DNA of 17,607 bases from a virus (IMGVR_UViG_2896607866_000008:1-17607); one strand, 5' to 3'; numbered from the stretch's first letter, positions 9,254-16,857 are shown. Notes: generated from the letters alone by a model not told the origin. Numbers and translations are program-made.

Positions 9254-9325
9254 TGAAGTGGCACACTGAATTTGGCCACCTGAACAGAGGTGATATGCTC
9301 ACCTCAGAACAACACAGGTGCTCCA

Positions 9326-9628
9326 ATGAAAAAAAGAAATTTTAGCGCAGAGTTTAAACGCGAATCCGCTCAACTGGTTGTTGACCAGAAATACACGGTG
9401 GCAGATGCCGCCAAAGCTATGGATGTTGGCCTTTCCACAATGACAAGATGGGTCAAACAACTGCGTGATGAGCGTCAGGGCAAAACACCAAAAGCCTCCC
9501 CCATTACCCCGGAACAAATTGAAATACGTGAGCTCAGGAAAAAGCTACAACGCATTGAAATGGAGAATGAAATATTAAAAAAGGCTACCGCGCTCTTGAT
9601 GTCAGACTCCCTGAACAGTTCTCGATAA
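9326..9628 (+). CDS. IS911 transposase OrfA (100 aa, HTH/leucine zipper)
   Basis: [50 protein letters not shown]... The ORF track starts 12 codons earlier at an upstream in-frame Met. Confidence 0.9.
9577..9583 (+). promoter_or_regulatory. IS911 programmed -1 ribosomal frameshift heptamer A AAA AAG (gives the OrfAB transposase fusion)
   Basis: ATTAAAAAAGG read directly near the end of orfA; this is the known IS911 frameshift signal (established knowledge). Confidence 0.7.
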
Positions 9629-9654
9629 TCGGGAAACTCAGAGCGCATTATCCT

Positions 9655-10494
9655 GTGGTCACACTCTGCCATGTGTTCGGGGTTCATCGCAGCAGCTACA
9701 GATACTGGAAAAACCGTCCTGAAAAACCAGACGGCAGACGGGCTGTATTACGCAGTCAGGTACTTGAGCTACATGGCATCAGCCACGGTTCGGCCGGAGC
9801 AAGAAGCATCGCCACAATGGCAACCCGGAGAGGCTACCAGATGGGACGCTGGCTTGCTGGCAGGCTCATGAAAGAGCTGGGGCTGGTCAGCTGTCAGCAG
9901 CCGACTCACCGGTATAAACGTGGTGGTCATGAACATGTTGCTATCCCTAACTACCTTGAAAGGCAGTTCGCCGTGACCGAGCCAAATCAGGTGTGGTGCG
10001 GTGATGTGACCTATATCTGGGCGGGTAAGCGCTGGGCGTACCTCGCCGTTGTTCTCGACCTGTTCGCAAGAAAACCAGTGGGCTGGGCCATGTCGTTCTC
10101 GCCGGACAGCAGGCTCACCATGAAAGCGCTGGAAATGGCATGGGAAACCCGTGGTAAGCCCGGCGGGGTGATGTTCCACAGCGATCAGGGCAGTCATTAT
10201 ACGAGCAGGCAGTTCCGGCAGTTATTGTGGCGATATCAGATCAGACAGAGTATGAGCCGGCGCGGAAACTGCTGGGATAACAGCCCAATGGAACGCTTCT
10301 TCAGGAGTCTGAAGAACGAATGGATGCCGGTGGTGGGTTACGTAAGCTTCAGCGAGGCAGCTCACGCCATAACGGACTATATCGTTGGATATTACAGCGC
10401 ACTAAGACCGCACGAATATAACGGTGGGTTACCCCCAAACGAATCGGAAAATCGATACTGGAAAAACTCTAACTCGGTGGCCAGTTTTTGTTGA
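9655..10494 (+). CDS. IS911 transposase OrfB (DDE catalytic domain); expressed as an OrfAB fusion, the orfB frame opens upstream near the frameshift site
   Basis: ...[37 protein letters not shown]...[10 protein letters not shown]... typical IS3-family DDE transposase. Confidence 0.9.
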
Positions 10495-10669
10495 CCACTT
10501 CAATCCCCCATGTCACATAGCTTGAACTGAATCAGATCCTTCACAAGCTGCTCAGCCTTTTTAATGGCCTTCTTCTCTTTCTTCCGACGAGTCATGAGAG
10601 CGCTATGAGGTAGCCTGAGTTTAACGGACACTCCTTCCTGAAATAGAATGGCATCAGAAGGAGCTAATA

Positions 10670-10972
10670 ATGAGCAGAAAAACCCAACGTTACTCTAAAG
10701 AGTTCAAAGCCGAAGCTGTCAGAACGGTTCTTGAAAATCAACTTTCGATCAGTGAAGGCGCTTCCCGATTATCCCTTCCTGAAGGCACTTTAGGACAATG
10801 GGTTACCGCCGCCAGAAAAGGGCTCGGTACTCCTGGTTCCCGCACGGTGGCTGAACTGGAATCTGAAATTCTGCAACTGCGTAAGGCGTTAAATGAAGCT
10901 CGCCTTGAGCGAGATATATTAAAAAAAGCAACAGCGTATTTTGCACAGGAGTCGCTGAAAAATACGCGTTAA
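10670..10972 (+). CDS. IS600 transposase OrfA (100 aa)
   Basis: MSRKTQRYSKEFKAEAVRTVLENQLSISEGASRLSLPEGTLGQWV...; an A7G slippery run lies near its 3' end. Confidence 0.9.
   Translation: MSRKTQRYSKEFKAEAVRTVLENQLSISEGASRLSLPEGTLGQWVTAARKGLGTPGSRTVAELESEILQLRKALNEARLERDILKKATAYFAQESLKNTR
10921..10928 (+). promoter_or_regulatory. IS600 putative -1 frameshift slippery run (AAAAAAAG)
   Basis: Read directly near the end of orfA, with orfB in the -1 frame downstream; frameshifting is inferred by analogy with other IS3-family elements. Confidence 0.5.
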
Positions 10973-11007
10973 TCGAACAATGGCGACAACAATTTCCCAT
11001 TGAAGCG

Positions 11008-14543: not shown

Positions 14544-14769
14544 TTATTCAGTTCTGGATTTTGTCGCCCTGCGTATCCGCGCTTTCGCATTACGCTCAAT
14601 CTGTATCAGCTTTTCTATATTTCTCCGCCTTTCCTGTTCCTCCTGGCGCAATAGTCTTACATCATCTGCCAGTCTGGTTTCTCTTTTTGCCACAGAGAGC
14701 ATCCAGTCAAACGGCTCCACAACCGCACCGCAGATTTTACAGCGGACCTGACGCTCTTTTTCGTCAACC
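14544..14769 (-). pseudogene. 3' fragment (75 codons) of an unknown gene, 5'-truncated by IS911 copy 2
   Basis: Open frame ...VDEKERQVRCKICGAVVEPFDWMLSVAKRETRLADDVRLLRQEEQERRRNIEKLIQIERNAKARIRRATKSRTE-stop runs directly out of the IS911 right end at 14770. Confidence 0.35.
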
Positions 14770-14777
14770 TGAAGTGG

Positions 14778-15602
14778 TCAACAAAAACTGGCCACCGAGT
14801 TAGAGTTTTTCCAGTATCGATTTTCCGATTCGTTTGGGGGTAACCCACCGTTATATTCGTGCGGTCTTAGTGCGCTGTAATATCCAACGATATAGTCCGT
14901 TATGGCGTGAGCTGCCTCGCTGAAGCTTACGTAACCCACCACCGGCATCCATTCGTTCTTCAGACTCCTGAAGAAGCGTTCCATTGGGCTGTTATCCCAG
15001 CAGTTTCCGCGCCGGCTCATACTCTGTCTGATCTGATATCGCCACAATAACTGCCGGAACTGCCTGCTCGTATAATGACTGCCCTGATCGCTGTGGAACA
15101 TCACCCCGCCGGGCTTACCACGGGTTTCCCATGCCATTTCCAGCGCTTTCATGGTGAGCCTGCTGTCCGGCGAGAACGACATGGCCCAGCCCACTGGTTT
15201 TCTTGCGAACAGGTCGAGAACAACGGCGAGGTACGCCCAGATATAGGTCACATCACCGCACCACACCTGATTTGGCTCGGTCACGGCGAACTGCCTTTCA
15301 AGGTAGTTAGGGATAGCAACATGTTCATGACCACCACGTTTATACCGGTGAGTCGGCTGCTGACAGCTGACCAGCCCCAGCTCTTTCATGAGCCTGCCAG
15401 CAAGCCAGCGTCCCATCTGGTAGCCTCTCCGGGTTGCCATTGTGGCGATGCTTCTTGCTCCGGCCGAACCGTGGCTGATGCCATGTAGCTCAAGTACCTG
15501 ACTACGTAATACAGCCCGTCTGCCGTCTGGTTTTTCAGGACGGTTTTTCCAGTATCTGTAGCTGCTGCGATGAACCCCGAACACATGGCAGAGTGTGACC
15601 AC
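14778..15602 (-). CDS. IS911 OrfB with a 5-aa deletion adjacent to the first catalytic Asp (probably inactive)
   Basis: 274 aa versus 279 aa in copy 1; the deletion sits right after the CGDVTYIW motif. Confidence 0.8.
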
Positions 15603-15628
15603 AGGATAATGCGCTCTGAGTTTCCCGA

Positions 15629-15931
15629 TTATCGAGAACTGTTCAGGGAGTCTGACATCAAGAGCGCGGTAGCCTTTTTTAATATTTCATTCTCCATTTC
15701 AATGCGTTGTAGCTTTTTCCTGAGCTCACGGATTTCAATTTGTTCCGGGGTAATGGGGGAGGCTTTTGGTGTTTTGCCCTGACGCTCATCACGCAGTTGT
15801 TTGACCCATCTTGTCATTGTGGAAAGGCCAACATCCATAGCTTTGGCGGCATCTGCCACCGTGTATTTCTGGTCAACAACCAGTTGAGCGGATTCGCGTT
15901 TAAACTCTGCGCTAAAATTTCTTTTTTTCAT
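15629..15931 (-). CDS. IS911 OrfA (copy 2)
   Basis: Identical protein to copy 1 OrfA. Confidence 0.9.
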
Positions 15932-16000
15932 TGGAGCACCTGTGTTGTTCTGAGGTGAGCATATCACCTCTGTTCAGGTGGCCAAATTCAGTGTGCCACT

Positions 16001-16857
16001 TCAGGTATTTGGTGTATCCAGGAGCGGTTATTACAACTGGGTACAGCATGAACCCTCAGACAGAAAACAAAGTGATGAGCGGCTAAAACTGGAGATTAAG
16101 GTGGCACATATCCGCACTCGCGAAACATATGGAACCCGGCGGCTCCAGACGGAGCTGGCAGAGAATGGCATCATCGTTGGTCGTGACCGACTGGCACGTC
16201 TTCGTAAGGAGCTAAGGCTACGCTGTAAGCAGAAACGCAAGTTCAGAGCGACTACGAACCCGAACCACAATCTGCCAGTTGCGCCAAATCTGCTGAACCA
16301 GACGTTCGCTCCTACAGCACCAAATCAGGTCTGGGTGGCGGACCTGACGTATGTTGCCACACAGGAGGGATGGTTGTACCTCGCTGGCATCAAAGATGTT
16401 TATACGTGCGAAATTGTCGGCTACGCCATGGGAGAGCGCATGACAAAAGAGCTGACAGGTAAAGCCCTGTTTATGGCGCTCAGGAGCCAGCGCCCACCTG
16501 CCGGGCTAATCCACCACTCTGATCGAGGTTCACAGTACTGCGCATACGATTACCGGGTCATACAGGAGCAGTCTGGTCTGAAAACATCAATGTCGCGTAA
16601 AGGTAACTGTTACGACAACGCTCCGATGGAAAGCTTCTGGGGAACGCTGAAAAATGAGAGCCTGAGCCACTATCGTTTTAATAACCGGGATGAAGCCATC
16701 TCAGTAATACGGGAATACATTGAGATTTTCTACAATCGTCAGCGTCGTCACTCTCGTCTGGGGAATATCTCCCCGGCAGCCTTCAGGGAAAAATATCATC
16801 AGATGGCTGCTTAAAAAAAGAACAAATGGTAGTGTCCGCTATTGCCAGTACACCTCA
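16001..16857 (+). mobile_element. IS600, 5'-truncated partial copy (lacks about the first 408 bp including the left end and orfA); junction with the IS911 left end at about 16001-16003
   Basis: Sequence from GGTATTTGGTGTATCCAGGAGCGG onward is co-linear with copy 1 from 11013 onward; the right end ...GTACACCTCA is at 16857. Confidence 0.85.
16004..16814 (+). pseudogene. IS600 orfB lacking its orfA partner and frameshift context (the ORF-track protein MAKFSVPLQ... has an IS911-derived chimeric N-terminus)
   Basis: The OrfB sequence is identical to copy 1 from QVFGVSRSGYY onward; the upstream 26 nt of the ORF belong to the IS911 end. Confidence 0.7.

Follow-up and report, generated by a model that had tools for sequence, protein, structure and literature searches.

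The question raised by the 17,607-nucleotide stretch IMGVR_UViG_2896607866_000008:1-17607 (referred to here at its full length as the window) is how two copies of the insertion sequence (IS) IS911 came to lie in inverted orientation on either side of a segment of about 4.3 kb that carries a hok/mok/sok toxin-antitoxin locus. The original prediction saw in this arrangement a potentially invertible or mobilisable cassette. The comparisons described below indicate that the structure is, in all likelihood, an in situ by-product of IS expansion in Shigella flexneri rather than an element specialised for inversion or mobility. Positions 6811-17607 of the window are 100% identical to CP024470.1, a record of S. 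flexneri 3a strain 71-2783, and the window is a decayed prophage in the S. flexneri chromosome which is placed between sitABCD and pgrR/ycjY, with sitDCBA lying outside the window on its left. Structures such as the IS911 pair are already known, and this one belongs to ordinary IS-driven prophage decay.

Every block of the window, the bracketed cassette included, keeps its ancestral order and orientation, and the differences from the ancestor are deletions. The enteroinvasive Escherichia coli (EIEC) strain RMDEC332 (locus L003) carries the same prophage beside sitABCD in an almost undecayed state, and the blocks of the window fall on it in strictly descending order from position 34901 to position 1475 (Table 1). 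E. coli FDAARGOS_944 and ten S. flexneri genomes contain, in the early region, a block that is collinear with the interval 11870-14769 at 98.9-99.7% identity, and positions 16858-17566 at the chromosomal edge match pgrR/ycjY with 99.4% identity in more than 5200 E. coli genomes. That pgrR-ycjY follows the prophage is what the K-12 map leads one to expect for this flank of the Rac site. In S. flexneri the usual state of the region is pgrR'-IS600(full)-ydaU'-IS2-ydaV-DUF977-118aa-DUF4014-HNH-221aa-DUF551-hok-70aa-IS1-DUF1367-YbcO-DUF1133, and a full-length IS600 occupies the identical pgrR site in loci L006, L027 and L029-L032. The comparison with related genomes, which the original prediction had advocated, has in this way identified both the ancestral arrangement and the missing halves of the truncated genes in RMDEC332 and other S. 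flexneri, and the ancestral sequence has been recovered for all IS junctions.

The IS elements of the window stand where prophage DNA is missing. The first copy of IS911 (IS911-1) takes the place of 678 bp between the terminase small-subunit gene and a Rha-like gene, and a complete copy of IS600 (IS600-1), which is 99.8% identical to the annotated IS600 of comparison locus L001, takes the place of about 5.5 kb of prophage containing lysis genes, tRNAs and the nin region, for which both ancestral sides are provided by L003 and L029. The second copy of IS911 (IS911-2) joins codon 44 of a 118-amino acid (aa) prophage gene to nucleotide 411 of a further IS600. Compared with other S. flexneri, about 4 kb is lost at this element, comprising ydaU', IS2, ydaV, DUF977 and the 5' part of the 118-aa gene, which is intact in loci L002, L003 and L025-L033. 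The earlier suggestion that the present junctions are products of recombination or adjacent deletion rather than simple insertions is supported, in the sense of deletion, by the relatives, which show the 678 bp and the approximately 4 kb that are missing. The truncated IS600, which the original prediction overlooked, adjoins the left terminal inverted repeat (IRL) of IS911-2 and is a direct repeat of IS600-1 with 100% identity (11013-11870 equals 16001-16858). IS911-2 was inserted into the IS600 sitting in pgrR.

Both bracketing elements are IS911, yet neither is now a simple insertion. Inspection of the element ends and a repeat search bear out the inverted pair, which the latter places far beyond chance: 9253-10023 pairs with 15234-16004, and 10032-10502 pairs with 14770-15240. 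The IRL and the right terminal inverted repeat (IRR) are imperfect, 36 bp long and identical at 24 of 36 positions, and each begins with TGAAGTGG; together with a length of about 1250 bp these are the ends and the size of IS911, and the RefSeq features under the DNA matching IS911 read 'IS3-like element IS911 family transposase'. IS911-1 has an intact orfA, an A6G frameshift site (A AAA AAG) and orfB, from which a predicted OrfAB of 389 aa can be reconstructed, and it has Pfam matches to rve (4.7e-32) and HTH_21. The organisation is that of the IS3 group, with orfA and orfB in the 0 and -1 frames, the A6G slip and the rve DDE domain in OrfB. The two copies are near-identical, as had been stated, and the '100%' identity given by the inverted-repeat search is a rounded figure: two mismatches, both synonymous, are found at IS nucleotides 273 (9526, A, versus 15731) and 500 (9753, C, versus 15504), and IS911-2 is shortened to 1234 bp by a 15-bp in-frame deletion between 7-bp CTGGGCG repeats (10017-10038 in copy 1, 15234-15240 in copy 2). 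The gene layout of IS911-2 is as in copy 1 except for five residues, WAGKR, which are removed directly after the GDVTYI motif and within the Pfam rve match. To judge from the homologous transposases of the IS3 family, the DDE triad begins with the Asp of this motif. Because the deletion takes the five residues that follow this DDE motif in the rve core, the transposase of IS911-2 is probably catalytically dead. A search by open reading frame (ORF) for genomes with the deleted IS911 found no record of the 274-aa form, and the 220-aa form in AKMV01 only.

The flanking triplets on the plus strand are TTC and ATC for IS911-1, as originally read, and ACC and GGT for IS911-2; the flanking triplets of each IS of the region were read, and no 3-bp target duplication was found at any of them, as had been predicted for the two IS911 copies. 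A simple insertion of IS911 would carry such a duplication of 3 bp, or at times of 4 bp. The segment between the IS911 copies extends from 10503 to 14769 (4267 bp), which leaves the predicted right end in place and moves the left end by one nucleotide from 10504, and its content of IS600, hok/mok and HNH/DUF551 genes is confirmed. The right ends of the two elements abut different genes, as had been noted, but the sequence beside IS911-1 is an internal piece of the Rha-like gene, cut by an IS at either end, rather than an N-terminal stub. This 103-bp fragment has a 100% match in 17 E. coli/EIEC genomes, where it is annotated as hypothetical or as Rha family, and it is in frame with WP_004996416.1. 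The idea that 10503-10605 and 14544-14769 might be the halves of one gene, as in a circular or inverted history, was rejected, these being distinct genes.

A relative timing of these events is provided by CP100042.1 (L034), a complete and independent genome which shows the exact C'/IRR-IS911-IRL/IS600'-pgrR' junctions of the window, and has neither IS911-1 nor IS600-1 nor the 15-bp deletion; its ycjY gene is intact. Because CP100042 has the copy-2 junctions only, IS911-2 and the deletion beside it are older, and IS911-1, IS600-1, the IS2 in ycjY and the lesions of copy 2 are younger. For the same reason, the two IS911 copies were neither made together nor did they arrive as a unit.

The order of events and the mechanism of each deletion are inferred from the observed anatomy, collinearity, deletions and loss in sister strains, and the following history is proposed. 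A prophage of the phiP27/Rac type between sitABCD and pgrR would have been eroded step by step through deletions that each started from the end of an IS. An IS600 in pgrR would first have taken out the int-proximal end of the prophage together with chromosomal genes. An IS911 would then have entered this IS600 at nucleotides 410/411 in the opposite orientation and become IS911-2, and a deletion starting from its IRR would have removed about 4 kb as far as codon 44 of the 118-aa gene, which gives the state shared with CP100042. Later on, IS911-1 and IS600-1 with the 678-bp and the roughly 5.5-kb deletions would have stripped the terminase/lysis/nin interval, and IS911-2 would have gained its two point changes and the 15-bp slippage deletion. 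The outcome would be a hok-HNH remnant that lies between 1.2-kb inverted IS911 repeats and 0.85-kb direct IS600 repeats, which serve as passive substrates.

Several other explanations account for the inverted pair in different ways. Repeats of 1234 bp which are 99.8% identical, inverted and 4267 bp apart represent a competent substrate for homologous inversion by RecA, and RecA-mediated flipping of 10503-14769 would be physically possible. That the segment actively flips, with recombination between the IS911 copies maintaining both orientations and possibly regulating hok or its neighbours, is nevertheless improbable, as the sole assembly with both IS911 copies shows the ancestral orientation. 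A weaker indication in the same direction is that the copy-2 markers C273, T500 and the 15-bp deletion stay together on the IS600'-linked copy and are unchanged in AKMV01 (L017), whereas repeated crossovers in the interval between the markers, which takes up about 40% of the element, would have scrambled them. The crossover would lie inside the IS and leave every junction between an IS tip and the cassette unaltered, so that no promoter or gene fusion is switched, and the neighbours on the outside are gene remnants (terminase' and IS600'), so that an inversion would, judging from the anatomy, be without obvious consequence. No invertase or integrase ORF that could act as a site-specific recombinase is present in or beside 9254-16003, and the repeats are whole IS elements. 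An exchange of partners between the IS911 copies was also tried in either direction; it restores neither matching 3-bp repeats nor the continuity of IS600. The inverted and nearly identical copies and the reverse complementarity of the copy-2 triplets ACC and GGT would likewise suit a single intramolecular, replicative-type transposition of IS911 that made the inverted duplicate and inverted the DNA in between. Such an origin is exceedingly improbable, given that the segment keeps the orientation of the ancestor and that the inverted target repeats which it predicts are absent: neither TTC/ACC, at the IRL of copy 1 and the IRR of copy 2, nor ATC/GGT, at the IRR of copy 1 and the IRL of copy 2, is a complementary pair. 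Moreover, IS911 transposes by a copy-out/paste-in mechanism through a circle (PMC2909936), and CP100042 shows copy 2 with its present junctions before copy 1.

The form of two IS copies around a cargo recalls Tn10 and Tn5, and with the intact reading frames of copy 1 it could point to a composite transposon, IS911-cargo-IS911, that brought the hok and HNH/DUF551 genes to this site and could move again. Almost no credence can be given to this, as the cargo is native, being collinear together with both outer flanks with the same prophage in relatives; the outer flanks TTC (9251-9253) and GGT (16004-16006) show no duplication; the outer ends are two IRLs, with a catalytic-core deletion in copy 2; and the copies arrived at different times, L034 having copy 2 alone. 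When the unit was looked for elsewhere, no E. coli genome covered at least 80% of the window, and the IS911/IS600 junction as a nested element had no contiguous match among 72,556 plasmids. The ORF across the left junction (9021-9266, A/IRL, in which A is the left flank) was found in CP024470.1 only. For these reasons, and because relatives show a precise deletion of the region as described below, the invertible or mobilisable cassette of the original prediction is not upheld. It is also very improbable that the two-copy arrangement is an assembly artefact, caused by a mis-join across the IS repeats. The authors of the 71-2783 assembly label the genome a draft on account of one collapsed repeat, location unstated, that was left unresolved, and the three inner junctions (IRR/B, B/IS600 and IS600/hok side, where B is the 103-bp fragment) are without independent confirmation. 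However, PacBio and Illumina reads as well as optical maps went into the assembly, a 6.75-kb structure is within the usual reach of a single PacBio read, and B is authentic prophage sequence that sits where the ancestral order places it. The A/IRL junction also occurs in the read-based assemblies ERR832473 and DRR016010, and the C'/IRR, IRL/IS600' and IS600/pgrR' junctions also occur in CP100042, UGYT01 and AKMV01.

Some observations weigh against the view that the structure is a by-product of IS expansion in situ. The three inner junctions are contained in one draft-flagged PacBio assembly only. Among the relatives found, none has a simply inserted IS911-1 or IS600-1 between target repeats, and how the 678 bp and the 5.5 kb were lost, whether by adjacent deletion or by recombination between two copies, is for that reason inferred. 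The orientation of IS600-1 is opposite to that of the IS600 near that region in other S. flexneri, which suggests that IS600-1 has an independent origin or one that is too complex to reconstruct. Lastly, inversion at low frequency in the population may be compatible with the assembly data; repeats of 1.25 kb are too long to be phased in short-read assemblies.

The fate of the segment in closely related strains is a precise loss. The near-identical genomes UGYT01000001 (L004) and AKMV01000020 (L017) are without exactly 9254-14769 (5516 bp), and their junction reads ...CATCCATTC/TGAAGTGGTCAAC... (IRR) ...IS911(-).../GGTATTT, with CATTC at the end of the left side. Because the IS911 copies are inverted, the IRL of copy 1 and the IRR of copy 2 are directly repeated on the plus strand, perfectly over 8 bp (TGAAGTGG) and at 24 of 36 positions overall, and the deletion joins these tips. 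The junction alleles at 9253/9254 were scored in read-based assemblies which share a 289-aa fusion ORF (see below). The allele A/IRL is present in ERR832473, DRR016010 and the source genome, and the allele A/IRR is present in ERR316944, SRR8165799 and SRR7277705 as well as in L004 and L017. A third allele, A/TGAAGTGG/TGAAGTGGCACAC, in which the 8-bp IS911 tip is tandemly doubled before a normal IRL, occurs in SRR27743026 (L018) and SRR35312039 (L019); the doubled tip may be due to slippage or may be a trace of transposase activity. The sole IS911 of L017 (7486-8719) has the copy-2 markers C273, T500 and the 15-bp deletion, and that of L004 (11291-12539) has the ancestral/copy-1 markers; therefore the deletion occurred twice, or once and was followed by gene conversion. 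A local tree of single-nucleotide polymorphisms (SNPs), built from the 5-kb flank in 10 assemblies, contains private SNPs only, with which the alleles cannot be ordered.

The loss in the sister strains could have arisen by slipped mispairing on the 8-bp repeat or by a transposase-mediated event at both tips, two routes that would yield an identical product sequence. IS30 and IS911 are known to bring together ends that belong to separate copies and to use their own inverted repeats as targets (Olasz et al. 2022, PMC9333248). A possible route is that the IS911 transposase pairs the IRL of copy 1 with the IRR of copy 2 and makes a precise single-strand deletion of 9254-14769, which is fixed by replication and would have recurred independently in the 3a lineage. 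This is rather unlikely; if true, it would provide a transposase-driven excision route for a copy-out/paste-in element, a class which is not supposed to excise. The insertion of a new IS911 head to head beside the IRL of copy 1, followed by recombination with copy 2, was set aside, as insertion targeted to inverted repeats is reported in the IRL-IRR configuration only (PMC9333248). The sister strains L004 and L017 have lost a seemingly intact hok/mok/sok locus without apparent harm, and therefore either hok is not an effective segment stabiliser or post-segregational killer, or other genomic hok/sok copies compensate.

Like the IS10 copies of Tn10 and the IS50 copies of Tn5, the IS911 pair consists of near-identical inverted copies that flank a cargo of a few kb, and the likeness extends to the state of the copies, as in Tn5 and Tn10 one IS copy is intact and the other defective. 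Unlike these transposons, the IS911 arrangement has no flanking duplication, its cargo is native, its copies were acquired separately and the unit has not been seen twice; and whereas Tn10 and Tn5 move by cut-and-paste, IS911 moves by copy-out/paste-in. The sister deletion resembles the rearrangements of IS30 and IS911 that are targeted to inverted repeats, in that it ends exactly at the transposase-recognised IRL and IRR tips of two copies (Olasz et al. 2022, PMC9333248). In the systems described, however, it is copies in the same orientation that become linked by their ends into IS dimers. The present copies are inverted, and what results from them is a plain deletion without a spacer; a slip on the 8-bp microhomology gives the identical sequence here, so that a role of the transposase is not implied. 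The exact and possibly recurrent tip-to-tip deletion and the 8-bp allele would, if transposase-dependent, bear on deletions caused by copy-out/paste-in elements in general.

The expansion of IS1, IS2, IS4, IS600 and IS911 in Shigella, together with IS-mediated deletion, is documented (Hawkey et al. 2020, PMC7373316). The window agrees with this picture of decay in everything essential: IS911, IS600 and IS2 are all present, genes stop abruptly where an IS begins, target duplications have disappeared, and a single locus shows different IS-anchored deletions from strain to strain. It adds one further example at the level of a locus, in which the erosion of one prophage from the pgrR side can be followed through at least four states. 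The locus may be regarded as a textbook-style case of IS expansion eroding a Shigella prophage, in which nested and paired IS copies create the substrates for further loss. It helps to annotate S. flexneri 3a genomes, and it warns against taking every inverted pair of IS copies in such genomes for a functional switch or a transposon.

Table 1. Features of the window and their counterparts in the prophage of EIEC RMDEC332 (locus L003).
Feature	Window position	Strand	RMDEC332 (L003) position	Details
Tail and baseplate block	1-8229		34901-26821	Divergent stretch between window 2889 and 3459
Terminase large and small block	8226-9253		10832-9805	99.3% identity
Terminase small-subunit gene, 3' remnant	9021-9253	-		C-terminal ~77 codons; 5' part lost at IS911-1 IRL junction
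IS911 copy 1 (IS911-1)	9254-10502	+		1249 bp; IRL towards terminase remnant, IRR towards cassette
Rha-like prophage gene, 103-bp internal fragment	10503-10605	-	9127-9024	About codons 158-191 of 198; between IS911-1 IRR and IS600-1 IRL
IS600 copy 1 (IS600-1)	10606-11869	+		Complete, 1264 bp; flanks CTA / GTA, without target duplication
hok region block	12165-12557		3335-2941	
hok/mok/sok type I toxin-antitoxin locus	12229-12553	-		hok 12229-12384; mok 12229-12441; sok model match 12379-12553
DUF551 gene	12839-13204	-		Pfam match; lambdoid early region
221-aa ORF	13204-13869	-		Lambdoid early region
HNH endonuclease gene	13866-14231	-		Pfam match; lambdoid early region
DUF4014 gene	14233-14451	-		Pfam match; lambdoid early region
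118-aa gene block	14451-14769		1793-1475	
118-aa prophage gene (WP_000403784.1), 3' part	14544-14769	-		Codons 44-118 (75 codons); 5' part lost at IS911-2 IRR junction
IS911 copy 2 (IS911-2)	14770-16003	-		1234 bp; IRR towards cassette, IRL towards truncated IS600
IS600 copy 2, truncated	16004-16857	+		Nucleotides 411-1264 present; 5' 410 nucleotides missing
pgrR (ycjZ), LysR-type regulator gene	16858-17293	-		3' end cut by IS600; chromosomal edge of decayed prophage

The hok/mok/sok locus appears intact from its sequence features. The Hok protein of 51 aa matches Pfam HOK_GEF (3e-23), the mok ORF overlaps hok, and the antisense sok region is a full-length match to the Rfam model RF01794, whose gathering score of 59 is well exceeded at 118 bits. 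This is the composition of a type I hok/sok system at the sequence level. In these respects, and in its position in a lambdoid region beside nin genes, it is like the chromosomal hok/sok loci of E. coli prophages; unlike the usual prophage locus it is a cargo between IS copies and is lost in sister strains. On the other side of IS911-1, phage records annotate terminase large and small genes at the position of 8226-9253. The truncated pgrR product of 160 aa is present in 13 contigs.

The IS600 duplicate amounts to 854 bp at 100% identity in direct orientation (11016-11869 and 16004-16857) and brackets the hok cassette together with IS911-2. Direct repeats of this kind are a ready substrate for RecA, and a deletion of 11870-16857 would restore a full IS600 beside pgrR'.

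The prophage locus is a hot spot for independent IS-adjacent deletions. In ANAN01000163 (L006) the full IS600 in pgrR is joined at 2587/2588 straight to window position 13907, near the boundary of the HNH and 221-aa ORFs, and in another S. flexneri lineage (L025) an IS600 links the nin region to tail-fibre genes, where position 14368 onward corresponds to window position 2984. The IS911 that CP100042 carries at the copy-2 position (L034 6214-7462) has eight clustered differences, at nucleotides 246, 249, 252, 255, 258, 267, 277 and 282, of which six fall in a 3-nucleotide register; this cluster has the appearance of a short stretch converted by a diverged copy of IS911/ISEc52-like type.

At the right end of the window the last 41 nucleotides (17567-17607) are part of the terminal inverted repeat of an IS2 which truncates ycjY, a gene that is intact in CP100042 and in most of the other S. 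flexneri loci fetched. A deletion of about 16 kb without an IS lies at 8226-8229 with the microhomology ACCA, and the head, neck, sheath, tube and tape-measure genes are gone. It fuses a baseplate gene to the terminase large-subunit gene in a 289-aa ORF (8149-9018, minus strand), which is common to UGYT01 (L004), AKMV01 (L017) and about 20 read-based assemblies and thus constitutes a lineage marker. The DUF2612/Phage_Wedge1 baseplate gene at 3983-4587 (minus strand) is divided into two overlapping ORFs of 120 aa and 85 aa, in place of which the EIEC prophage has a single gene of 201 aa; the split gene is probably a frameshift pseudogene, in keeping with a dead prophage.

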